NCBI GenBank assembly: GCA_963716525.1
Contig: OY970315.1
Span: forward strand, 3,238,154 to 3,302,153
Direction: 5' to 3'
Length of the DNA stretch: 64,000 nucleotides
Source of the DNA: an uncultured Actinomycetes bacterium
GTDB lineage: Bacteria; Actinomycetota; Acidimicrobiia; IMCC26256; PALSA-610
Shown: piece after piece, positions 6,145 to 57,465 of the stretch
How positions within the stretch are numbered: position 1 is the stretch's first letter
Layout: the number at the start of each line of letters is the position of its first letter
Notes under the pieces: generated by a model
Database searches by the model: none
Told to the model about the DNA's origin: nothing
The model's input: the letters and a program-made list of their open reading frames with translations, nothing else
Program-made: the position numbers and the translations under genes

Positions 6145-6759
6145 ATCGCTGCAGAGGATGCCCGGATCAACGAACGGATTCGTGCCCGTTCGGTCCGTCT
6201 GATCGGCAGTGCCGGTGAACAGCTCGGCGTGGTCGACACGCCGAAGGCGCTGTCGATAGCCCGTGAGGCCGGCCTCGATCTCGTCGAGGTCGCCGCCAAC
6301 GCCGAACCACCGGTCGCCCGGATCATGGACTTCGGCAAGTACCGCTACGAGCAGGACCAGAAGCGCAAGGAGAGCCGCAAGAAGACCTCGAACGTCATCA
6401 TCAAGGAGATGAAGTTCCGGCCCAAGATCGACGAGCACGACTACACCACCAAGATGAAGCACGTCGAGCGCTTCCTCCAGGAGGGGTCGAAGGTCAAGCT
6501 CACGATCATGTTCCACGGTCGGGAGATGGCCCACCCCGAGCTCGGCCGCCGCATCCTCGAGCGGGTCGCGGATCAGGTGAAGGAGTTCGCGGTCATCGAG
6601 TCCCACCCCCGCCAGGACGGCCGCAACATGACGATGGTCCTCAACGCCATCCGCAAGCCCAACGTCCGGCGCCCGAAGGCGCCGGCGGCAGCACCCCAAG
6701 CGGCAGCACCCCAAGCGGCAGCACCCCAAACGGCACCGCCCGCAGCCGCGACCGGCTGA
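6145..6759 (+). CDS. infC: Translation initiation factor IF-3, probable ATC start
   Basis: INERIRARSVRLIGSAGEQLGVV...LDLVEVAANAEPPVARIMDFGKYRYE is canonical IF-3. There is no in-frame ATG/GTG/TTG near the conserved N-terminus. ATC 6145 is preceded by AAGGGAG (6128-6134). The N-terminus IAAEDARINERIR matches the I-x-A-E-x-R-I-N-x-R-I-R pattern I recall for other actinobacterial IF-3s. Confidence 0.85.
   Translation: MAAEDARINERIRARSVRLIGSAGEQLGVVDTPKALSIAREAGLDLVEVAANAEPPVARIMDFGKYRYEQDQKRKESRKKTSNVIIKEMKFRPKIDEHDYTTKMKHVERFLQEGSKVKLTIMFHGREMAHPELGRRILERVADQVKEFAVIESHPRQDGRNMTMVLNAIRKPNVRRPKAPAAAPQAAAPQAAAPQTAPPAAATG
6685..6729 (+). repeat. Perfect 15-bp x3 in-frame tandem repeat in the IF-3 C-terminal tail
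   Basis: gcggcagcaccccaa is repeated three times head to tail and encodes (AAAPQ)3. Confidence 0.95.
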
Positions 6760-17194: not shown

Positions 17195-17400
17195 TCCGTC
17201 GGACCCCGTCTCCTCGAGGGTCCTGGCCGAGCCGCCTCACGGCGGCGTGTACGGCAGCGGCGCATGCACTGGCGCCGCCGAGAGGATGGGCATCCTGGCT
17301 CGCGTTCCCGGGGCCGTGCCTCGGTGACGCTTACAGTTGCGGGTCAGCGCCGGACTCGCACCGGCTTCCCCCGGCCCGTCGTGCGACGGACCCACACCAG
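17195..17400 (-). promoter_or_regulatory. Cobalamin (B12) riboswitch
   Basis: The minus strand reads GGGAAGCCGGTGCGAGTCCGGCGCTGACCCGCAACTGTAA (17370-17331), which is the conserved GGGAA..GGTG..TCC..GC.G.CCCGC.ACTGT core. A B12-box-like AGCCAGGATGCCC is at 17300-17288. GCCAGTG is at 17273-17267. A CCTCT anti-SD (17286-17282) could pair with the GGAGG SD (17197-17193). Confidence 0.8.
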
Positions 17401-17555
17401 GCCTCCGAGCCTGGCGTGATCACTCCGGCCCGGACACTACCGTGCCGCCGCCCGCGGTGCGTCACCGTCGACCTCCGTTGATCGGGATAGCGTGCGCGGC
17501 GCGACGCCGATCACGGCGCCGCCGGCGCGTCTGCGCCACGGGCAAGGGGGCATTC

Positions 17556-20309
17556 ATGGTGGGCCTGCGACCTTCGGGTCACCGTTGGTGCTGCGCGCTC
17601 GGCGCCGCCGCCCTCACCCTCGCCGGCATGCTCACCACGGCGGCGACCACCGCGCAACCCGCGTCGGGCGCGCCTGGGGCGACGCCGGCTCTCGCGACCG
17701 GTCCGTTCACCGTCGACATGACGAACCGAGAGGACGTGCGCCAGCTCTTCGATGTCATGCAGGCCGACACGGCCGGCGTCACCGACGGTTGGAGCGGCGG
17801 CAGCTTCGCGCCGGGATGCGTACCCGGCAGCGACACGCCGCAGTTCCTCGCCGCGGCCCTGACGCGCCTGAACTACTACCGGGCGATGGCGGGCGTGCAG
17901 CCCGTCACGTTCAAGGGCACCGACAACCTGCATCCCGACGCGGGCACGTCGGCCGACACGAACAACGCGCTGGCCCAGGCCGGGGTGCTCATGGAGTCGG
18001 CGAACCCCGTGCTCGTGGCGGGCACGGGTGGCACGCACGGGCCGCCGCAGATCTTCAACGGCCAGCCGTTGGACTGCTGGACCCAGCAGGCTTCCGACAC
18101 GACGTTCAACTCGAACCTCGCGGGTGGCTCGCCGATCGGCGCCGGTACGTCGTTCGACGCGCACCAGATCGACAACTGGATCAACGACGGCGAGTGCTCG
18201 ATCGCGGGCGGCTGCGGATCCGACAGCAGCGCGGTGCTCGGCCACCGGCGGAACATGCTCGATCCGACGAAGTTCGAGATGGGGCTGGGCGCGGCCGTCG
18301 GTCCGGTGGGTGGCGCGTCGAACGCGGCGCTGTTCTTCCCCTCTGACCGATCGGTGCAACCCGCGCGTGACGGCTTCTGGGCCTGGCCGCCGAAGGGATT
18401 CGTGCCCTATCAGGTGGTGTTCAAGCGTTGGTCGTTCAGCATGACCGGTGCCGACTTCACCAACGCCACCGTCACCATGCAGCGCAACGGCGTGGCCATT
18501 GGCGCGACGATCGACTGCGGAGCTGCCTGCCCCAACTTCTCCGGTCCGGGGATCACGTGGAGTGTGGCCGGTTTCCCGCTCGACGGCACCGACTGGCCGA
18601 AGCCCACCGCGGACGACACGTACCACGTGACGGTGGCCAACGTGGTCGTGAACGGCGGCGCACCACAGAATTTCACGTACGACGTGACGGTGATCGACCC
18701 GTCAAAGGGTGACGCGGCGCATGCGCCGAGCGGTACGGCGAGCCCTCCGGTGGGCCAGAACAGCACGTATACGGTGCCGGCGATCCCGAACGCCACGGGC
18801 TACCAGTGGCGCACCACGCCGCTCTCGAACTCCACGTTCAACGACGGGGCCGAGAACGGCACGGGAAGCTGGACCTTCGCAGGCGGCGCCTATGACCCGA
18901 TTCAGACCACCGACGTCGCGAGCGGCACGCATGCGTTCCAGCTCGCGCAGTCGGACTTCAACATCCCCGACACGCTCGCGTTGCATCGCACGCTGCTCCC
19001 GAACGCGAACAGTCAGCTCAGCTTCGACAGCAAGGTTGTGAGCTTCACGCATCTCCACGCGAACGTGCAGGTGTCGACCGACGGTGGGAATACGTGGGGC
19101 GCGCCGCTCTACGAGCAGCATGACGGGGACGAGGCATCGTTCTCGCACAAGACGCTGTCGCTGGCGGCGTATGCCGGCCAGCAGATCATGCTCCGGTTCG
19201 CGGTCGGCTACGACTTCAACGGCGGCGTGTGCGAGTGCGTGTCGAGCGCCTGGCACTTCGACAACGTGGCGCTGAGCAACATCCAGGAGGTCGGCACGCC
19301 GGTGCTGAGCGGGGTAGGCGCGAACCCGTCGTTCGCGTTCAATCCGCCGTCGGCGGGCACGTACGCGATCGAGGTGCGGCCGCAATACTCCGGTCCGGAA
19401 TTCGGGGTGTTCAGTGCCACCACGCAGGTGACGGCCACGGGTGCCGCGGCGGTGCCGACGGTGGTCGGCCTGGTGGACGCGGCGCAGAACGCGTACGTGA
19501 AGTCGGGCACGCTCGCGAGCCCGTATGCGAAGGTCGCGGCGAACGCCACCGCGATCTCCGTGGGTGCTGATGCCACGAACGGCGCAGTGGTGGGGGTGAT
19601 CGCGAACGGCGGCAGCGCCTACGTGCGTGTGGGCAACGGTGCGTTCAGCCGGATCGCGGCGGGCGCGACGGCGATCTCCGTGGGTGCTGATGCCACGAAC
19701 GGCGCAGTGGTGGGGGTGATCGCGAACGGCGGCAATGCCTACGTGCGGGTGGGCAACGGTGCGTTCGCGAGGATCGCGGCGAACGCCACGGCGATCTCCG
19801 TGGGTGCTGATGCCACGAACGGGCCGGTGGTGGGGGTGATCGCGAACGGTGGCAGTGCCTATGTGCGGGTGGGGAACGGCGCGTTCGTGCGGGAGTCGGG
19901 GAATGCCACGGCGGTGTCGGTGGGTACCGACGCGACGCACGGCATGATTCTCGGTCTGGTCGCGAACGGCGGGATTGCGTACGTGAAGCAGGGCACGCCG
20001 GCGAGTGCGTGGGTGAAGGAGGCGTCGAACGCCACGGCGATCTCGGTGGCGTCGGATGCCACGCACAACGCGCTCGTTGGGGTGGTGGCGAACGGCGGCA
20101 CGTTGTATGTGAAGCAGGGCACGCTTGCGAGTGCGTGGGTGAAGGAGGCGTCGAACTCCTCGATCGTGAGCGTGGCGTCCGACGCCACGAGCGGCGCGCT
20201 GCTGGGCGCGACCGCGAACGGAGCGAGCATCTACGTGAAGCAGGGTTCGCTCACCGGCGCGTTCTCCAAGCAGACCGGTTCGGGCACCGCGGTCTCGGTG
20301 GCCGGCTGA
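17556..20309 (+). CDS. Large secreted multidomain protein: CAP/SCP (PR-1-like) domain, central jelly-roll-like domains, C-terminal 7-repeat beta-propeller-like module
   Basis: ATG 17556 follows AAGGGGG. A signal peptide (ALGAAALTLAGMLTTAATTAQPASG) is present. CAP motifs are LNYYRAMAGV and LGHRRNMLDPTKFEMGLG. The C-terminus carries about 40-aa repeats ATAISVGADATNGAVVGVIANGGSAYVRVGNGAF... x6-7. Confidence 0.7.
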   Translation: MVGLRPSGHRWCCALGAAALTLAGMLTTAATTAQPASGAPGATPALATGPFTVDMTNREDVRQLFDVMQADTAGVTDGWSGGSFAPGCVPGSDTPQFLAAALTRLNYYRAMAGVQPVTFKGTDNLHPDAGTSADTNNALAQAGVLMESANPVLVAGTGGTHGPPQIFNGQPLDCWTQQASDTTFNSNLAGGSPIGAGTSFDAHQIDNWINDGECSIAGGCGSDSSAVLGHRRNMLDPTKFEMGLGAAVGPVGGASNAALFFPSDRSVQPARDGFWAWPPKGFVPYQVVFKRWSFSMTGADFTNATVTMQRNGVAIGATIDCGAACPNFSGPGITWSVAGFPLDGTDWPKPTADDTYHVTVANVVVNGGAPQNFTYDVTVIDPSKGDAAHAPSGTASPPVGQNSTYTVPAIPNATGYQWRTTPLSNSTFNDGAENGTGSWTFAGGAYDPIQTTDVASGTHAFQLAQSDFNIPDTLALHRTLLPNANSQLSFDSKVVSFTHLHANVQVSTDGGNTWGAPLYEQHDGDEASFSHKTLSLAAYAGQQIMLRFAVGYDFNGGVCECVSSAWHFDNVALSNIQEVGTPVLSGVGANPSFAFNPPSAGTYAIEVRPQYSGPEFGVFSATTQVTATGAAAVPTVVGLVDAAQNAYVKSGTLASPYAKVAANATAISVGADATNGAVVGVIANGGSAYVRVGNGAFSRIAAGATAISVGADATNGAVVGVIANGGNAYVRVGNGAFARIAANATAISVGADATNGPVVGVIANGGSAYVRVGNGAFVRESGNATAVSVGTDATHGMILGLVANGGIAYVKQGTPASAWVKEASNATAISVASDATHNALVGVVANGGTLYVKQGTLASAWVKEASNSSIVSVASDATSGALLGATANGASIYVKQGSLTGAFSKQTGSGTAVSVAG
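19551..19910 (+). repeat. Three near-identical 120-bp tandem units inside the propeller-repeat coding region
   Basis: The units start at 19551, 19671 and 19791 with gcgatctccgtgggtgctgatgccacgaac.... Units 1 and 2 are identical over their first 64 nt. Further diverged units of 120-129 bp continue to about 20300. Confidence 0.9.
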
Positions 20310-22966: not shown

Positions 22967-23726
22967 ATGGACCTCGAAGGACGCACTGCACTGGTCACCG
23001 GCGGAGGGCGCGGCATCGGCCGGGCCATCGCGCTCGCGCTCGCCGGCGACGGCGCCGACGTGGCCGTCAACTACCGCCGCGACGACGCGGCCGCGGAGGA
23101 GACCGCCGCCGCGATCCAGGCGCTCGGCCGGCGGGCGCGCGGCGTACCGCGCCGACGTCGCCGACTTCGAGCAGTGCGACACGATGGTGGGCGCCACGAT
23201 CGCCGAGCTCGGTCCGATCGACATCCTCGTGAACAATGCCGGTGTGGCGAGCCGCGGCGGCTCGGTGAAGAACACCGAGCCCGCCGAGGTGCACCGGCTG
23301 TTCGACACACACGCGTACGGCGCGTGGACGCTGTCGAAGCTGGTGATCCCGGGCATGCGCACGAAGCCGCGCGGCGACATCGTGATGATCTCGTCGGCGG
23401 CCACGCTCCACATGGCCGCGAACAGCGCGCCGTACAACATGGCCAAGGCCGCGCTCGAGGCGCTTGCGTGGACGCTCGCCAAGGAGGAGCGCAAGCACGG
23501 GATCCACGTGAACGTGGTCGCGCCCGGCCTCGTCGACACGGAGATGGGCCGGCGGCTCGTGAAGGGCGCGCTCGGCGTGGACGACATCCGCACCATGGAC
23601 GAGCGCGCCTCGTTCGGCCACGTGTGCACGCCCGAGGAGGTCGCCGAGGTGGTGCGCTGGGTCGTCTCGCCCGGCGCCTCCTACGTCACCGGCCAGCGCA
23701 TCGGCGTCGACGGCGGCAGCTTCTGA
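22967..23726 (+). pseudogene. FabG-like SDR oxidoreductase, 1-nt insertion near 23138
   Basis: MDLEGRTALVTGGGRGIGRAIALALAGDGADVAVNYRRDDAAAEETAAAIQALGRRA is in one frame. AAYRADVADFEQ...NNAGV...YNMAKAALEAL...VNVVAPGLVDTEM...VTGQRIGVDGGSF is in the +1 frame (tail of track ORF 22377..23726). Confidence 0.85.
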
Positions 23727-23731
23727 CCCCT

Positions 23732-23775
23732 CATGCGTCGTTTGGGTACCAAATAGCGGTCCCAAACGACGCATG
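23732..23775. repeat. 44-bp palindromic element, copy 1 (intergenic)
   Basis: CATGCGTCGTTTGGG (23732-23746), a 14-nt loop TACCAAATAGCGGT, then CCCAAACGACGCATG (23761-23775). The inverted repeat is a perfect 15 bp. A second copy is at 54919-54962. Confidence 0.95.
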
Positions 23776-23793
23776 TGGTGGGCTTAGCCTGAG

Positions 23794-24210
23794 GTGATGC
23801 TGCTGCTCGTGCTGCTGTTCATCGCGGTGCCGATCGCCGAGACCTATGTGATCGTGCAGGTCGCCGGCGCCATCGGCGGGTGGGACACGATCGGCCTGCT
23901 CGTGGCGATCTCGATCGCCGGCGCCTTCCTCGTGCGGCACGAGGGCTTCATCGTGCTGCGCCGCGTGCAGGAACAGCTCGACCGGGGCCGCATGCCGGGC
24001 CGCGAGCTCGTCGACGGCGCGCTCGTGCTCGTGGGCGGCGTGATGATGCTGGTTCCCGGGTTCCTCACTGACGGCACGGGGCTGCTGCTGCTGTTCCCGC
24101 CGACGCGCGCGGTTGCGCGCTCGTTGCTGATCCGCCGCTTCCACAACCGGGTCGAGGTGTACGGGCCTCGCCGCGGCCCTGGCGGTCCCGACGACGTCAT
24201 CGACATCTGA
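23794..24210 (+). CDS. fxsA: FxsA-family (UPF0716) cytoplasmic membrane protein
   Basis: 138-aa ORF with IAVPIAETYVIVQVAG...MLVPGFLTDGTGLLLLFPPTR, the FxsA signature. Confidence 0.8.
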   Translation: MMLLLVLLFIAVPIAETYVIVQVAGAIGGWDTIGLLVAISIAGAFLVRHEGFIVLRRVQEQLDRGRMPGRELVDGALVLVGGVMMLVPGFLTDGTGLLLLFPPTRAVARSLLIRRFHNRVEVYGPRRGPGGPDDVIDI

Positions 24211-24220
24211 CGACGCACGG

Positions 24221-24997
24221 TCACATGTCGAGGGGGCGGAGAAGCTCGGCGGGGATCGGGCAGTCGACGCGGCTCGCGAGGTCGGCGACGGTGTCGACCG
24301 CGACCCAGTCGACGACGCGCGCGACTCGCCCGAGCTCGGCCACGGTCAGCTCGTCGTCGCTGCGGTTCGCCTCGATCACCGCGTCGAGGAGTCGATCGGG
24401 CAGCAGGCGGCCGAGCGGCAGCACGGCCCAGATCGCTACGTCGCGCGCCTCCGCGAGCACATCACTTGCCCCCGCGGGCACGAGCATGCGGCTGGGCGCG
24501 GCCGCGTCGGGGACGAGCAGCACCGTGCGCACACCGAGGTCGGCAAGCTCGTAGGCCTCCACCAGCTCGGCGCGCTGCGCCACGGCACGCGCCGCGGCGC
24601 GGTCGTCAGCGTCGACCACGGCCACAACGTCGAGATCGAACCGCTCGTCGAGTGCCCGCGCCACCGGCGCGGGCCAGCCGACCACGCCGAGCCGCTCACC
24701 CTCCTCCTGGAGCCCGAGCGCGTCGCGCAGCCGCCCGCTCGTGGGATCATCGTCGAACGCGCGCGCATACCGCCGTGCCGCGCCGCCGATGTCGTCGGTC
24801 GACAGCAGCTGCGCGCACAGCCACCACAGCGCGCCGTTGGAACGGTGGTGGGCGAGCACGCGCCGGCAGGCCACGACGAGGCCCGCCGGGTCGCCGTCGA
24901 GCAGGCCGAGCGCACGCGCCGCGTCGGGCGCGAGCTCGGCGTCGTCGCCGCGGCGGCGGGCGAGCGATCGCAGCGCCTCGAACGGATTGAACGACAC
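24221..24997 (-). CDS. Hypothetical protein
   Basis: GTG 24997 lies 15 nt after the stop of the upstream acyl-CoA dehydrogenase. The translation is protein-like (VSFNPFEALRSLARRR...ALWWLCAQLL...). I recognise no family. Confidence 0.45.
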   Translation of the reverse strand: MSFNPFEALRSLARRRGDDAELAPDAARALGLLDGDPAGLVVACRRVLAHHRSNGALWWLCAQLLSTDDIGGAARRYARAFDDDPTSGRLRDALGLQEEGERLGVVGWPAPVARALDERFDLDVVAVVDADDRAAARAVAQRAELVEAYELADLGVRTVLLVPDAAAPSRMLVPAGASDVLAEARDVAIWAVLPLGRLLPDRLLDAVIEANRSDDELTVAELGRVARVVDWVAVDTVADLASRVDCPIPAELLRPLDM

Positions 24998-25011: not shown

Positions 25012-26242
25012 TCAGCGCTGGTGGCTCGGGTCCTTGGGCAGGCCCAGCACCCGTTCGCCCAGGATGTTGCGCATCACCTCGTCGGTGCCGCCGGCGACAC
25101 GGCCGCCGGGGAGGCCGAGGATCATCTCCGACCACGCGTAGGTGCCCCACTCGCCGCCGTCGGCGACGAGCCTCGGCCCGAGGAGGTCGCTCACGAGCTG
25201 GCCGAGCCGCTGGCCGTTGTTCGTGCCCGCGAGCTTGGCGATCGACAGCTCGGGGCCCGGCGTCTGACCGGCCTTGATCTTGCCGAGGGCACGCTGGTTC
25301 GTGAGCGACGCCGCCCGCGAGTGCACGTAGTAGCCCGCGATCTTCTGCCGCGCGACACGGTCATTGGCGAGGCCGTAGTGCTGGGCCATCTGCACGAGCC
25401 GGGCGATCGTTCGGTCACCGCCGCCCATACCTCCGCCGCCACCGGCACCGATCGCCATGCGCTCGTTCATGAGCGTCGTCGAGCGCGACACCCCAGCCCT
25501 CGTCGACGCCGCCGAGGCGGTGCGTGTCGGGCACCCGCACCTCGGTGAGGAACACCTCGTTGAACGACGCGCCGCCGGTCATCTGGCGCAGCGGACGCAC
25601 CTCGATGCCCGGGTCCTTCATGTCGATGAGGAACACCGTGAGGCCCTTGTGCTTGGGCTTGTCGGGCGACGTGCGGGTGATGATCTCGCCGATGTCGGAG
25701 AACTGCGCGCCCGACGTCCACACCTTCTGGCCGGTGAGCACCCATTCGTCGCCGTCGCGCACGGCGCGCGTCTGGATGCCCGCGAGGTCGGAGCCGGCGA
25801 CCGGCTCGGAGAACAGCTGGCAGCCGATGACGTCGCCGCGCCAGAGCGACCGGAGATAGCGCTCGCGCACTTCGGCGATGCCGTGCGCCAGGATCGTGGG
25901 CGCCACCATGCCGAGCCCGATGATGAACGGCGACTCGTCGGGCATCCGGTAGTGCGCCGTCAGCTCGCTGAACGCCCGCTGGAACTCCGGCGTGAGGCCG
26001 CGCCCGCCGTACTCGGTGGGCCCCGCGATCCAGCCGAAGCCCGCGTCGAACAGCGTGTTGCGCCACTGCTGGGCCCGCGCGACCAGGCTCTGCTCGGCCT
26101 CGTGGCTGCGCTCCTCGAACATGCCGACGCGGTCCGAGCCCTTGCCCCACTCGAACGCCGCCTCCTCGACCCGCCGCTCGCAGTGAGCGTCGAGGAAGTC
26201 GGTCGCCTCCTGGCGGAACGCTTCGAGCGTGATCGTGTTCAT
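25012..26242 (-). pseudogene. Acyl-CoA dehydrogenase, 1-nt insertion in a G-run near 25491-25494
   Basis: The N-terminal 250 aa from ATG 26242 (MNTITLEAF...CQLFSEPVAGSDLAGIQTRAVRDGDEWVLTGQKVWTSGA...GGVDEGWG) are in one frame. The C-terminal part VSRSTTLMNERMAIG...GTDEVMRNILGERVLGLP is in the next frame (track ORF 25012..25491). Confidence 0.85.
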
Positions 26243-27804: not shown

Positions 27805-28803
27805 TGGTGGCGCCCCACGAATTAGCGCGCGAGAGGAACGCGGCGCCGGCCGCGTCGGGTGCGGGCACCGCCCGGGATGACGCCGCGGTGGTGGCCGACC
27901 GGCTCGAGAAGCGCTACGGCGGCACCCGTGCGGTCGACGGGATGCACTTCGACGTCGCCCGGGGCGAGATCTTCGCGCTCGTCGGCCCGAACGGCGCCGG
28001 CAAGACCACGACGGTGGAGATGCTCGAGGGCTACCGCCGTCCCGATGCCGGCACGGTGCGCGTGCTCGGTCTCGACCCGATCGACGACGGGCGGGCGTTA
28101 CGGCCGCGCATCGGCGTGATGCTGCAGGAGGGCGGGCTCTATCCAGGCCTGCGGCCGCTCGAGGTGCTGCGCCTGTTCGCCGCCTTCTACGAGAATCCCG
28201 AAGCGCCCGAGGCGCTGCTCGACCGGGTGGGCCTGCTCGAGGCCCGGCGCACGGTCGTACGGCGGCTTTCGGGCGGCCAGAAGCAGCGCCTCTCGCTCGC
28301 CTGCGCCCTCGTCGGCCGGCCCGAGCTCGTGTTCCTCGACGAGCCGACCGCGGGCATGGATCCGCACGCCCGCGCCACCACCTGGGACCTCGTGCGCGAG
28401 CTGCCGCGCCCGGGGCACCACGATCGTGGTCACCACGCACCTTCTCGCCGAGGCCGAGCAACTCTGCGACCGGGTCGCGATCGTCGTGGCCGGCCGGGTC
28501 GCCGCGCTCGGCACGCCGCGCGAGCTGATGCGAAGCGCCCGGGTGCATCGCGTCACGTTCACCGCGTCCGCGACGCTCGACACGCACGAGCTCGCCCGCG
28601 CGCTCGGTGTCGACGACACGGCCGTCGCGTCGACCGGTCGGGAAGGCGAATACGAGGTGCACACGCCGGGCACGCCGGCGCTCGTCGCCGCGCTCGCGAA
28701 CCATCTGTGTGCGATCGACGTGCGCCTCGGTTCCCTGCAGGCCAACGAGCAGTCGCTCGAGGCGGTGTTCCTGCAGATCACCGCGGAGGACGCAACGCAA
28801 TGA
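27804..28803 (+). pseudogene. ABC transporter ATP-binding protein (ABC-2/DrrA-like), 1-nt insertion near 28404
   Basis: Walker A GPNGAGKTT, signature LSGGQKQR and Walker B LVFLDEPTAGMD are in one frame. RARGTTIVVTTHLLAEAEQLCDRVAIV... is in the +1 frame (track ORF 28426..28803). The start is ambiguous (GTG 27804, 27807 or 27888). Confidence 0.85.
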
Positions 28804-29048
28804 GCCCCTCGGGGCGCGAGTGGCGGCCGGTGGGCCGCCCGATTGCGCACGCGGTCGCGGCCGCCGACGAGCGGGGGTGGACATGAGCCCCTCGGGGCGC
28901 GAGTGGCGGCCGGTGGGCCGCCCGATTGCGCACGCGGTCGCGGCCGCCGACGAGCGGGGGTGGACATGAGCCCCTCGGGGCGCGAGTGGCGGCCGGTGGG
29001 CCGCCCGATTGCGCACGCGGTCGCGGCCGCCGACGAGCGGGGGTGGAC
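28800..29048 (+). repeat. Three perfect 83-bp tandem units, each carrying a 28-codon mini-ORF (MIRU-like intercistronic element)
   Basis: The unit is ATGAGCCCCTCGGGGCGCGAGTGGCGGCCGGTGGGCCGCCCGATTGCGCACGCGGTCGCGGCCGCCGACGAGCGGGGGTGGAC, at 28800, 28883 and 28966. By my base-by-base comparison the three copies are identical. The mini-ORFs are 28800..28886, 28883..28969 and 28966..29052. Each encodes MSPSGREWRPVGRPIAHAVAAADERGWT and each is joined to its neighbour by an ATGA overlap. Confidence 0.95.
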
Positions 29049-29789
29049 ATGAACACCACCGCGGTCGCTGCGCAGGCCCGCACCGAGATCATGCTGTCGC
29101 TGCGCCGCGGCGAGAGCCTCGTGGTGACGCTCGCGATCCCGCTGGGTGTGCTGCTGTTCTTCTCCAAGATCGACACGTCGGTGCCCACCGGTTACAAGCA
29201 CGCGGTCGACTTCCTCGTGCCCGGTGTGCTCGCGCTCGCGATCATGTCGGCGGCGATGGTGTCGCTCGGCATCGCCACCGGTTTCGACCGGCGGTACGGC
29301 GTGCTCAAGCGCCTCGGCTCCACGCCGCTGTCGCGCGGGCAGCTGCTCGTTGCGAAGACGATCACGGTGCTCGTGCTGGAGGTGATCCAGTTCGTGCTGA
29401 TCATCCTTGTGGGGATCGCGCTCGGCTGGCACGCCACGCTCGGCATCGTCGGCGCGATCGGCCTCTCGCTGCTCGGCACGATCGCATTCGCGGGGCTCGG
29501 CATGCTGATGGCGGGCACGCTGCGTGCCGAAGCGACGCTCGCGCTCGCGAACGGGCTGTTCCTCGTGCTGTTGTTCCTCGGCGGCATGGCGTACCCGCTG
29601 GAGAAGCTGCCGTCGTTCCTGCGCGACCTCGCCCGCGCCCTCCCCGCCGCCGCGCTGTCCGAGACGCTGCACGGCGCGCTCGGCGGGCGGGCCGGCGCCG
29701 GTTTCCCCACCGGCAGCCTCGTGGTGCTCTGCGTGTGGGCCGTCGTGCTGCCCACGCTCGCGATCCGCTGGTTCCGCTGGGAGGAGTGA
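29049..29789 (+). CDS. ABC-2 type transporter permease
   Basis: The 246-aa product from ATG 29049 has six predicted TM helices and the typical ABC-2 layout. It follows the ATPase. Confidence 0.85.
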   Translation: MNTTAVAAQARTEIMLSLRRGESLVVTLAIPLGVLLFFSKIDTSVPTGYKHAVDFLVPGVLALAIMSAAMVSLGIATGFDRRYGVLKRLGSTPLSRGQLLVAKTITVLVLEVIQFVLIILVGIALGWHATLGIVGAIGLSLLGTIAFAGLGMLMAGTLRAEATLALANGLFLVLLFLGGMAYPLEKLPSFLRDLARALPAAALSETLHGALGGRAGAGFPTGSLVVLCVWAVVLPTLAIRWFRWEE

Positions 29790-53887: not shown

Positions 53888-55019
53888 CTACCGCGCGCCG
53901 CGTTCGCCACCCACCCAGACGCCCACGACCGGCGAACTGCCGTGCGCCCCCGTCGTGTCGATCGCGACGATGTCGGCGCGCCGCCCGGGTTCGATGCGAC
54001 CGCGCGTGCCGTCGCCCAGCAGATCGCAGGCGTAGCCCGACGTGAGCATCGCGACCCGCGCCGGGTCCACGCCGAGATCCAGCACGTTGCGTGCGGCGCC
54101 GGCGAGGGTGACCGCCGAGCCCGCGAGCGTGCCGTCGCGCAGGTACACCGCTCCGTCGCGTGCGACGATCTCGAGCCCACCCGACGTGCCCGCGCCCGGT
54201 GCGACCGCGTCACTCACGAGCACGACGTGCTCCGTTGCCGCGAGCGCGAGCTGTACCACCGGCGCGCCGACGTGGTGCAGGTCGGCGATCAGGCTCGGCG
54301 TGAGTCGCCCGTCGACGAGCGCGGCCTCCGCGAGACCGGGATCGCGATGGTGCATCGGGCGCATCCCGTTGAAGAGATGGGTGACGACGCGCGCGCCGGC
54401 GTCGGCGGCGGCGACTGCCTCGGCGAACGAACAGGTCGAGTGGCCGAGCGCGACGATCACGCCGCGTTCGGCGAGCAGGCGGGTGCCCACGAGACCGGGG
54501 TCGGCCTCGGGAGCGAGCGTCACCATGCGGACGAGGTCGCCGTGCCGGTCGAGCAGTCGCTCCAGCCACGCGAGGTCGACCGTTCGCAACAGATCGCGCG
54601 GGTGCGCGCCCGGCGCGCCGCCGAGAAACGGTCCCTCGAGGTGCACGCCGAGCAGTGCGCACGACCCATCGGGACGATCCGCGACGAGGTCGCGGCCGCG
54701 GCGAACGCGGTCGAGTATCTCGTCGTAGGCGTCGAGCGGCGCGGTGACGATCGTGGGCAGGCAGGCCGTCGTGCCGCACGACGCCAGCTCGTCGAGCGCC
54801 CGCGCGATCTCGTGCTCGTTGCGCGCGGGTCGCGAAGTCGATGTCGCCGGCACCGTTCACCTGCAGGTCGACGAACCCGGGGAGCAGCACCGCCCCCGAA
54901 AGGTCGACGAAATCGCCACATGCGTCGTTTGGGACCGCTATATGGGCCCCAAACGACGCATGCGCGATCGTGGGGCCGTCGAACTGGAGCCAGCCGTTGG
55001 CGCCGGCGACGGTGGTCAC
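53888..55019 (-). pseudogene. nagA: N-acetylglucosamine-6-phosphate deacetylase NagA, 1-nt insertion near 54828 plus an in-frame 45-nt palindromic-element insertion
   Basis: The N-terminus from GTG 55019 (VTTVAGANGWLQFDGPTIA[HASFGAHIAVPNDAC]GDFVDLSGAVLLPGFVDLQVNGAGDIDF) is in one frame. ARNEHEIARALDEL...GVHLEGPF...ALGHS...THLFNGM... is in the next frame (track ORF 53888..54853). Confidence 0.8.
54919..54962. repeat. 44-bp palindromic element, copy 2 (inside the nagA reading frame, inverted relative to copy 1)
   Basis: CATGCGTCGTTTGGG (54919-54933), the loop ACCGCTATATGGGC, then CCCAAACGACGCATG (54948-54962). The arms are identical to copy 1. The loop matches the reverse complement of the copy-1 loop at 11 of 14 positions. 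Confidence 0.95.
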
Positions 55020-55827: not shown

Positions 55828-57465
55828 ATGGCGGCAACCGATGTGCTCGCGTTGCACGCCCGCTCGATGCCCGACGCGGTCGCGGTCGTCGTCGACGCGA
55901 GCGGCGGCGGGCGCACGTCGACCACGACGTTCGCCGCATTGAACGACCTTGTGAACACGTGCGCGCACGGGTTGCTCGACGCCGGCGGGCGCGCGGGGGA
56001 GCGCCTCGTGTGGTGCGGGCCGAACTCGCTCGAGGTGCTCGTGACCATCCATGCGGCCCGCAAGCTGGGCATGGTGGCCGTGCCGCTCTCGTACCGGTTC
56101 ACCGCCGAGGAGATGGCGTACGTCGTCGAGAACTCCGACGCGACGCTGGTGGTCGCCGACGCCGATCAGGCCGAGACGGTGATCGCGGCCACGGCCGGGT
56201 CGGCGCGCGTCCGCGCGGTCGTGGTGTTCGGTGGCGAGGTGCCCGCCAGGACAGCGGGCGGGACATCGGGCGGGACACCGGGCGGGACATCGAGCGGGAC
56301 ATCGGGTGGGGCGCTCTCGTGGGACGGGCTGCTCGCGGGCCGGCCCACCACCGAACCGCCGGCGCCCGAGCATGCCTCGGAGGCCGGCGCGCAGATGATC
56401 TACACGAGCGGCACCACGGGAAAGCCGAAGGGCGCGCTGCGCACGCGCACCGACCGCTCGATCGTGTCGGCGCTGCTCGCCGAGCTCGGGCTCGGACAGG
56501 CCGACGACGTGCACCTCACCACGGGCCCGCTCTACCACTCGGGGCCGCTCGCCTTCGCCTCGATGAGCCACACGCTCGGCCGTCCAGTGGTCGTGCTGCG
56601 CCGCTTCGATCCGGTTGCGTGGTTGCGCCTCGTGGGGGAACACCGCGTCACCAACACGTTCAGCGCGCCCACGCAGCTGAAGCGCATCGTGTCGCTGCCG
56701 CCCGAGGAGCTCGCCGGCGCCGACATGTCGTCGATGCGCTGCCTCATCGCCAATGCCGCGCCCGTGCCGTATGCGCTCAAGTGCGAGGTCGTGGAGAAGC
56801 TCGGCGACGGCTTCCTCTACGAGGTGTACGGCTCCACGGAGCTCGGCGTCGACACGGTGCTGCGGCCCGAGGACCAGTTGCGCAAGCCCGGTTCGTGCGG
56901 CCGCCCCTACGGCGGCATCGAGGTGAAGGTGGTGCAGGACGACGGCACCGCCGCGCCGCGCGGCACCGCGGGCGAGCTGTTCGTGCGCACCGGCCTCGCG
57001 ATGGACGGCTACCACAAGACCGCGGAGCAGGTCACCGAGCTCGCGGGGAGTGGGGGTGGAGACCCATCCGGATGGAAGTCGGTCGGCGACGTGGCCTACG
57101 TCGACGACGAGGGCTACGTGTACATCTGCGACCGCAAGAAGGACATGATCATCTCCGGGGGCGTGAACATCTACCCGGCCGAGATCGAGGCGGTGCTCCA
57201 CGCGCACCCGGCGGTGCTCGACGCGGCCGTGTTCGGCGTGCCCGACGACGAGTGGGGCGAAGCGGTGCACGCGGTGGTGCAGGCGAAGCCCGGTATCACA
57301 CTCGATCTGGACGAGCTCGCCGCGTTCGCCAATGAACGGCTGGCCGGCTACAAGCGGCCGCGCACGTGGGAGCAACGCGACGAGCTGCCGCGCACCGAGA
57401 GCGGCAAGCTGCTGAAGCGCGTTCTGCGTGACGAGCACTGGCACGGTCGCACCACGCAGGTGTGA
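55828..57465 (+). CDS. AMP-forming acyl-CoA synthetase (FadD-like adenylate-forming enzyme)
   Basis: 545-aa ORF with the AMP-binding motifs IYTSGTTGKPKGA, EVYGSTE, GDVAYVDDEGYVYICDRKKDMII and a C-terminal lysine (SGKLLKR). Confidence 0.85.
   Translation: MAATDVLALHARSMPDAVAVVVDASGGGRTSTTTFAALNDLVNTCAHGLLDAGGRAGERLVWCGPNSLEVLVTIHAARKLGMVAVPLSYRFTAEEMAYVVENSDATLVVADADQAETVIAATAGSARVRAVVVFGGEVPARTAGGTSGGTPGGTSSGTSGGALSWDGLLAGRPTTEPPAPEHASEAGAQMIYTSGTTGKPKGALRTRTDRSIVSALLAELGLGQADDVHLTTGPLYHSGPLAFASMSHTLGRPVVVLRRFDPVAWLRLVGEHRVTNTFSAPTQLKRIVSLPPEELAGADMSSMRCLIANAAPVPYALKCEVVEKLGDGFLYEVYGSTELGVDTVLRPEDQLRKPGSCGRPYGGIEVKVVQDDGTAAPRGTAGELFVRTGLAMDGYHKTAEQVTELAGSGGGDPSGWKSVGDVAYVDDEGYVYICDRKKDMIISGGVNIYPAEIEAVLHAHPAVLDAAVFGVPDDEWGEAVHAVVQAKPGITLDLDELAAFANERLAGYKRPRTWEQRDELPRTESGKLLKRVLRDEHWHGRTTQV
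56255..56314 (+). repeat. Imperfect 12-bp x5 in-frame tandem repeat inside the acyl-CoA synthetase gene
   Basis: The units are gcgggcgggaca / tcgggcgggaca / ccgggcgggaca / tcgagcgggaca / tcgggtggggcg. They encode AGGTSGGTPGGTSSGTSGGA. Confidence 0.9.

Follow-up and report, generated by a model that had tools for sequence, protein, structure and literature searches.

The DNA analysed here, which will be referred to as the window, is a stretch of 64 kb of a 4.59-Mb chromosome, and the two copies of the palindromic element that are the focus of this work are those counted within it (table 1). Copy 1 lies at the junction between the gene of a FabG-like short-chain dehydrogenase (SDR) and fxsA, which are on the same strand, 5 nt past the SDR stop codon (TGA) and 18 nt ahead of the alternative GTG start of fxsA at position 23794. 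The gap of 67 bp reported in the preliminary description of this DNA holds if fxsA is read from this GTG, but becomes 70 bp if it is read from the ATG at 23797. The product of fxsA is recognized by the Pfam FxsA model with E = 2e-36, protein P0121 being identical to the window protein. Copy 2, which had initially been left unplaced, is not intergenic but intragenic, being found on the minus strand within nagA, the gene of N-acetylglucosamine-6-phosphate deacetylase.

Table 1. Positions of the palindromes, neighbouring genes and other features, in the window and in the loci used for comparison.
Feature	Locus	Position	Strand	Remarks
Short tandem repeat	window	6685-6744		15-nt unit GCGGCAGCACCCCAA
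Cobalamin riboswitch aptamer	window	17268-17410	-	Rfam RF00174, 49.3 bits, E = 2.6e-09
Diverged repeats	window	19491-20226		period 120-126 nt, 69-88% identity
SDR (FabG-like) gene	window	22967..23726	+	upstream of copy 1
Frame break, SDR	window	23120-23150		one extra base
Palindrome, copy 1	window	23732..23775		CATGCGTCGTTTGGG-TACCAAATAGCGGT-CCCAAACGACGCATG
Loop of copy 1	window	23747-23760	+	host-transcript sense
Counterpart of CCA at copy 1	window	23776-23778		TGG on + strand
fxsA	window	23797..24210	+	downstream of copy 1
Frame break, acyl-CoA dehydrogenase (ACAD)	window	~25470-25500		apparent single extra base
Head-to-tail repeat	window	28800-29057		three 83-nt units
nagA	window	53888..55019	-	GTG start; host gene of copy 2
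Frame break, nagA	window	54815-54839		one extra C, ACC(C)GCG
CCA directly 5' of copy 2	window	54916..54918	+
Palindrome, copy 2	window	54919..54962		CATGCGTCGTTTGGG-ACCGCTATATGGGC-CCCAAACGACGCATG; opposite to copy 1
Loop of copy 2	window	54934-54947	-	host-transcript sense
Tandem repeat	window	56233-56304		12-nt unit
wHTH (AbiEi_4) + Vsr-like (REase_MTES_1575) nuclease gene	L001	1711-2652
wHTH + Vsr-like nuclease gene	L042	4001-4933
wHTH + Vsr-like nuclease gene	L044	4001-4939
wHTH + Vsr-like nuclease gene	L045	4001-4972
ABC-exporter gene	L018	971-2857	-
Sister-type palindrome in ABC-exporter gene	L018	1678-1727		in frame
DUF222 gene	L037	4730-6064	-
Hairpin with CGTCGTTTGGG/CCCAAACGACG arms	L017	1505-1536
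Hairpin with CGTCGTTTGGG/CCCAAACGACG arms	L025	147-178
Hairpins with CGTCGTTTGGG/CCCAAACGACG arms	L004, L005, L006, L013, L014, L015, L022

Both copies share the layout CATGCGTCGTTTGGG-N14-CCCAAACGACGCATG (44 bp, with 15-bp perfect arms). The preliminary description, according to which two 44-bp palindromes with identical 15-bp arms and 14-nt loops occur in opposite orientations, is accurate for both copies, and so is the observation that the loop of copy 2 matches the reverse complement of that of copy 1 at 11 of 14 positions, the loops being the most AT-rich part of the element (approximately 43% GC versus 60% GC in the arms). A chance origin had also been judged unlikely, and indeed the window contains two instances of the reduced pattern GTTTGGG-N8-24-CCCAAAC, for which 100 dinucleotide shuffles give an expectation of 0.00. 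In the 64-kb window a search with a single arm, allowing for up to three mismatches, returned these four arms only, and the covariance model of the family revealed no extra copies. The sequences surrounding copies 1 and 2 are unrelated outside approximately 47 bp and do not align; therefore, the segmental duplication that had been envisaged as another origin of the pair does not account for it.

When folded as RNA, either strand of the element yields −37 to −43 kcal/mol (z approximately −7.5), and none of 200 shuffled sequences folds as well. Once the two copies are set in a common orientation, each is preceded by CCA, which, judging from these two copies only, may reflect a target preference or be the last bases of the element itself. 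The copies point the same way with respect to transcription, although they are opposed on the chromosome and with regard to the GC skew, which is positive; this agreement between two copies carries no statistical weight. When read in the sense of the host transcript, both loops end with ...A(A/T)ATAGCGGT.

Other features of the window are a cobalamin riboswitch aptamer, which is its only Rfam match, and several repeats of a different kind. The three head-to-tail units at 28800-29057 are 98-100% identical, each of them begins with ATGAGCCCCTCGGGG and, their period not being divisible by three, they represent either a recent tandem duplication at the start of a gene or an assembly artefact; the diverged repeats of longer period are probably a repetitive protein-coding segment, and the tandem repeat with the 12-nt unit, which lies inside an AMP-dependent ligase gene, encodes a Gly/Thr/Ser-rich stretch. 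The reading frames of the SDR and nagA genes are each broken by one extra base, in nagA approximately 100 nt downstream of copy 2, and the ACAD gene is also split. Base-level inspection of the former two identified the extra base as a C in a short C run, and with three breaks in approximately 32 kb, indels introduced by a (long-read) assembly seem a likelier cause than true pseudogenization. GC3 frame-tracking did not provide a count of frameshifts, which it could not separate from gene boundaries.

The junction that hosts copy 1 can be compared with its orthologous counterparts in two relatives (loci L041 and L040), which share with the window the gene order CtaA, 5'-3' exonuclease, SDR, FxsA, ACAD and SCP2, the SDR orthologues carrying the adh_short domain and the FxsA homologues being 73-76% identical to that of the window. 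In the alignment of the SDR-fxsA junctions the window is longer by exactly 44 nt, which equals the length of the palindrome, and neither flank is duplicated. The CATG found at both ends was considered as a duplicated target and ruled out, as it belongs to the 44 extra nt. Thus, the orthologous empty site demonstrates that copy 1 was gained as a discrete 44-bp block without target-site duplication. The scan of positions 23300-24300 returned neither a T-run nor a terminator-like site; a hairpin is present but the U-tract of an intrinsic (rho-independent) terminator is absent, which rules out a canonical terminator at copy 1.

Copy 2 extends from position 1 of codon 20 to position 2 of codon 34 of nagA, in frame and free of stop codons, and is translated as H-A-S-F-G-A-H-I-A-V-P-N-D-A in the context ...FDGPTIA-HASFGAHIAVPNDA-CGDFVDLSG.... 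The nearest NagA homologues (63-73% identity) are encoded in syntenic loci (AMP-ligase, GT2, NagA, small ORF, FIST), and the orthologues P0002 to P0005 have, in place of the palindrome, ordinary sequence of nearly the same length. As the loop of the orthologues is only approximately 2 codons shorter than that of the window protein, the element stands in place of a variable loop and has not lengthened the gene by 44 bp. Either sequence was deleted when the element inserted, with selection maintaining frame and length, or the ancestral loop was shorter. The right arm encodes P-N-D-A where the orthologues read P-P/H-D-A, a resemblance that may reflect microhomology at the site. The alignment with solved NagA structures begins only at the DFVDLSG strand, which places the residues contributed by the element in a variable N-terminal region, where they would form 15 residues of a surface loop. 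In one relative (locus L037) nagA is directly followed by a DUF222 gene instead of the small ORF and the FIST gene present in the window and the other relatives, a local difference in gene content; DUF222 proteins belong to the HNH-associated 13E12-type family. Across approximately 60 kb of orthologous DNA of the nearest relatives the covariance model of the family detected no copy of the element.

Related copies are found in other genomes, and the proposal that the palindromes belong to a dispersed repeat family, which had been made conditional on such conservation, is therefore supported by the unrelated flanks, by the 44-nt empty site and by copies in another Acidimicrobiia genome and, of a sister type, in Solirubrobacterales-like bacteria. 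The scan of a genome collection led to another Acidimicrobiia MAG with three copies. One copy in locus L002 and one in locus L007 have arms (G)ATGCGTCGTTTGGGG that enclose a 14-nt spacer, together with a CTAT motif, and L007 also contains a degenerate copy. The metagenome scan revealed a more abundant sister type, GCTGACTT-CGTCGTTTGGG-ATCCATATGGAT-CCCAAACGACG-AAGTCAGC, on approximately 18 contigs from soil metagenomes and also in L001, which belongs to a Solirubrobacterales MAG. This type measures 50 bp or more and is palindromic throughout, and nine of its copies have identical 50-mers in unrelated flanks. A third type of arm is present in L028. The variable outer stems of the sister type were examined as possible inverted target duplications and this origin was rejected, the flanks fitting the subfamily consensus sequences ATCC-GCTGACTT and CCCCC-GCTGACTT rather than random flanks.

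As the copies were selected by their core in the search, its invariance in the alignment of 22 copies is a product of that selection. In this alignment 90.8% of the cells are paired; 11 of 21 pairs have changed on both sides and none of the 21 on one side only, values that no one of 500 shuffles reaches. Thus, the complementarity of the arms has been kept perfect through paired changes. L001 harbours three copies within 8 kb, one of which exhibits compensating changes within the core itself, so that counts based on the exact pattern underestimate the family. Four features suggest that the window type and the sister type may form one superfamily: (i) the same 11-nt core, CGTCGTTTGGG, next to the spacer; (ii) a TA-rich spacer of 12-14 nt at the centre; (iii) an ATG at equal, fixed spacing from the right arm (ATG-NNN-CCC-AAA-CGA-CG); and (iv) a high-GC actinobacterial host for both, the proposed homology resting on a core that also served as the search criterion.

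Exact 11-nt arms CGTCGTTTGGG/CCCAAACGACG occur in other hairpins as well (in Acidobacteriota, Desulfovibrio and others), more often than chance predicts. These are probably unrelated, terminator-like hairpins, among which those of L014 and L015 could be distant relatives of the element family. The hairpins of L003-L006, L008, L013-L015, L017, L020, L022 and L025, which share the 11-nt arms but differ in spacers, flanks and taxa, were treated as unrelated.

With respect to genes, copies are found (i) between co-directional genes, usually touching the upstream stop codon, in about 10 loci; (ii) between convergent genes in two loci (L002, where the element exactly fills the gap between the two genes, and L029); (iii) in divergent intergenic regions in two loci (L012 and L026); and (iv) in frame within coding sequence in two loci, namely nagA of the window and the ABC-exporter gene of L018, the intragenic copies being only 2 of approximately 22. 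The TGA contained in GCTGACTT of the element terminates the reading frame of an adjacent gene in six or more loci. In L018 the palindrome is read through just upstream of the Walker A motif in the ATPase domain, adding about 22 residues with respect to the solved ABCB1 structures (PDB). Coding sequence can thus accommodate the element where the frame is kept, as in nagA and in the L018 ATPase domain, and the presence of copies in divergent and in coding regions is evidence against a purely terminator origin.

Several systems of short bacterial repeats offer terms of comparison. The REP/REPIN sequences of Pseudomonas and E. coli and their RAYT transposases (PMC3116915, PMC2817692, bioRxiv 10.1101/2022.05.22.493013) are similar in being short hairpin repeats, mostly intergenic and without target-site duplication, and, for the sister type, in the association with a single-copy, vertically inherited nuclease gene flanked by repeat copies (see below). 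The differences are that a long, perfect stem of 15-25 bp takes the place of the short and imperfect REP, or of the REP doublet; that the element lacks the unpaired GTAG tag and its hosts belong to the Actinomycetota; and that the gene flanked by the sister type, whose start and stop codons lie inside the repeats, encodes a wHTH domain and a Vsr-like PD-(D/E)xK-type nuclease and not an HUH/Y1 transposase. The mobile unit of REPINs is a doublet of inverted REPs that forms a long hairpin; the hairpin of the element is single and long, and its arms are not palindromic REP units in themselves. Tagged REPs carry an unpaired GTAG or CGTC at one end of the hairpin and measure 20-40 bp, with a stem of 5-13 bp (8-9 bp for CGTC) and a loop of 4-5 nt (PMC3733652), whereas in the element, 44 bp in length, a 14-nt spacer separates perfect arms of 15 bp, and CGTC is in all copies base-paired to GACG within the 15-bp stem. 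Tagged REPs are also numerous, with tens to hundreds of copies per genome; the 64 kb of the window contain two copies of the element. The CGTC-tagged REPs have been described, along with their CCA tails, in five phyla, Actinobacteria not being among them (Di Nocera et al. 2013, PMC3733652). They resemble the element in the presence of CGTC, an adjacent CCA, the donation of stop codons, the occurrence of some intra-ORF copies and the lack of a known dedicated transposase, but differ in that their CCA tail is at the opposite end and their tag is terminal and unpaired, whereas here CGTC is base-paired and the spacer is 12-14 nt long.

The Rickettsia palindromic elements (RPE; PMC3733652) provide a precedent for palindromes inserted in frame in genes for apparently functional proteins. 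The nagA and L018 ORFs likewise stay open across the palindrome, a behaviour shared without any sequence relationship. RPE-1 is about 100-150 bp long and unrelated in both lineage and sequence. With MITEs the element has in common its small size, the absence of coding capacity, the inverted repeats at its boundaries and the gain as a discrete block, but bacterial MITEs are usually 70-300 bp long (PMC3733652), whereas the element is 44-50 bp long and, at the single site for which an empty counterpart was aligned, is not accompanied by a target-site duplication. Neither the window nor the loci yielded a parent insertion sequence whose ends match those of the element. Rfam has no family that matches the element, the sister-type copies giving only sub-threshold microRNA-hairpin look-alikes, and in the literature the core motif was found only in unrelated PCR primers, with no such repeat described for these lineages.

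The search for enzymes that could mobilize the element returned no HUH/Y1 (IS200/RAYT-like) ORF in approximately 330 kb of DNA, in what was a weak screen, and no transposase of any kind in the window or beside the Acidimicrobiia-type copies. In L001 an ORF bracketed exactly by two palindromes encodes, according to Pfam, an AbiEi_4 wHTH domain and a REase_MTES_1575 nuclease domain of the Vsr family (for a description of the latter, PMC3710099). In all three homologues whose neighbourhood was looked up, the gene lies in the order uvrA, nuclease, thioredoxin-TPR and SnoaL, and such a conserved locus indicates that it is single-copy and vertically inherited. The possibility that the nuclease is a roaming, multi-copy transposase was discarded because of this fixed position between uvrA and the thioredoxin gene. 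Diverged palindromes are found at both ends of the nuclease gene in L001, L042/43, L044 and L045 (four or five species), the other intergenic regions of these loci being devoid of palindromes at E<0.05; as they come from orthologous loci, they do not represent independent events, and they could be the gene's own operator and terminator.

The ATG of the nuclease gene lies centrally in the upstream palindrome, whose right arm encodes the first residues of the protein, and the stop codon is in or next to the downstream palindrome in L001, L042 and L044, while in L045 the ORF runs through the downstream palindrome and stops 9 nt beyond it. The right-arm-like N-terminal motif is present in 61 of the 120 closest homologues (66-77% identical), many of which start with M-x-P-K-R-R-S-H, and the acidic and histidine residues (catalytic-type) of the nuclease domain are invariant among members that are 36-80% identical. 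The protein family is large (21,039 clusters at 50% identity). The window and the Acidimicrobiia-type loci contain no homologue of the nuclease, and the start predicted for a window-type member, M(G/A)PKRR(M/I), is absent among 270 members of the family.

Taken together, the window copies are probably best explained as a small non-autonomous mobile palindrome, REP/REPIN-like in behaviour, of a so far undescribed family present in high-GC Actinomycetota. The preliminary description had proposed a REP/BIME-like repeat, a tiny MITE or a recognition hairpin; the REP-like behaviour is supported, but the element falls outside the formal definitions of tagged REPs and MITEs, so that 'REP-like' designates a behaviour and not family membership. 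Both window copies would be transcribed, within the SDR-fxsA and nagA mRNAs, and the transcribed copies would form hairpins of about −37 kcal/mol, of which the intergenic one would block 3'-exonucleases, be processed or bring about partial termination. The spread of the element would require a trans-acting protein capable of recognizing the conserved core.

By analogy with REPIN-RAYT systems, the best candidate for such a protein may be the wHTH and Vsr-like nuclease. The Actinomycetota palindromes would then be the repeat half of a REPIN-RAYT-like partnership, of which the resident enzyme is a wHTH-guided Vsr-like nuclease (PD-(D/E)xK, REase_MTES_1575) with its start and stop codons inside two repeats, and the window element would be the Acidimicrobiia branch. 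This extension is put forward tentatively and has to be regarded as doubtful.

The palindromes may, instead, be operators or decoys for a dimeric DNA-binding protein, e.g. the AbiEi-type wHTH protein of the Vsr-like nuclease itself, that have been kept for regulation, the copy at the nuclease start being autoregulatory. AbiEi-family proteins do autoregulate through inverted repeats, and symmetric arms of 11-15 bp around a TA-rich centre, a conserved core and the position of the upstream palindrome, which in 4-5 species spans the start codon and the likely ribosome-binding site of the wHTH-nuclease gene, are what such operators would look like. However, selection for a binding site conserves sequence and gives no compensatory changes in the arms, identical 50-mers recur in many unrelated flanks, coding regions included, and a precise gain of 44 bp took place at a site without regulatory logic. 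This explanation is, therefore, unlikely as a substitute for mobility, although binding and mobility are not mutually exclusive.

Less probable still, and by a clear measure, is that the hairpins are RNA elements that evolved locally, as terminators without U-tracts or as stabilizers of mRNA 3' ends, and came to resemble one another by convergent selection. The RNA hairpins are very stable, stop codons adjoin most intergenic copies, two of which separate convergent genes, and actinobacterial terminators often lack U-tracts. Convergence does not, however, account for the identity of 15 of 15 arm positions and 11 of 14 loop positions, with one loop reverse-complemented, in unrelated contexts, nor for copies within two coding sequences and in divergent intergenic regions, besides the absence of a T-tract and of the 44 nt from the orthologous junctions. 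Terminator activity may rather be a consequence of the insertion of the mobile palindrome.

Very little credence can be given to the idea that a site-specific recombinase flips the 31-kb segment between the two inverted copies by using them as its crossover sites: their inverted arrangement and their arms-plus-spacer layout do resemble recombinase core sites, but in the relatives the gene order matches across both sites (SDR then FxsA; continuous nagA), the GC skew keeps its sign from one copy to the other, neither copy was seen to have a recombinase gene next to it and the sister type has many copies per population. Finally, that the palindromes are artefacts of error-prone long-read assembly, as the at least three single-base frame breaks in the window (SDR, ACAD and nagA) might suggest, has a practically negligible probability in view of the presence of the element at two loci, of relatives in independent short-read assemblies (MEGAHIT-style k141 and JGI contigs) and of the fact that indel errors do not produce perfect palindromes of 44 bp.

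The mobile palindromes described here indicate that tiny elements of this kind spread in high-GC Actinomycetota, where they can sit in frame inside conserved enzymes such as NagA or an ABC ATPase domain. For the annotation of MAGs, it follows that such hairpins give rise to spurious ORFs, donate stop codons and add peptide loops. Work on REP-like repeats and on the transposases that reside with them has been confined almost entirely to Proteobacteria; if the link with the nuclease were causal, a second, independent route to a system made of a repeat and a resident enzyme would have been found, and the partnership, if true, would give a function to part of the orphan DUF559/very-short-patch-repair-like gene family, with its approximately 21,000 clusters at 50% identity.
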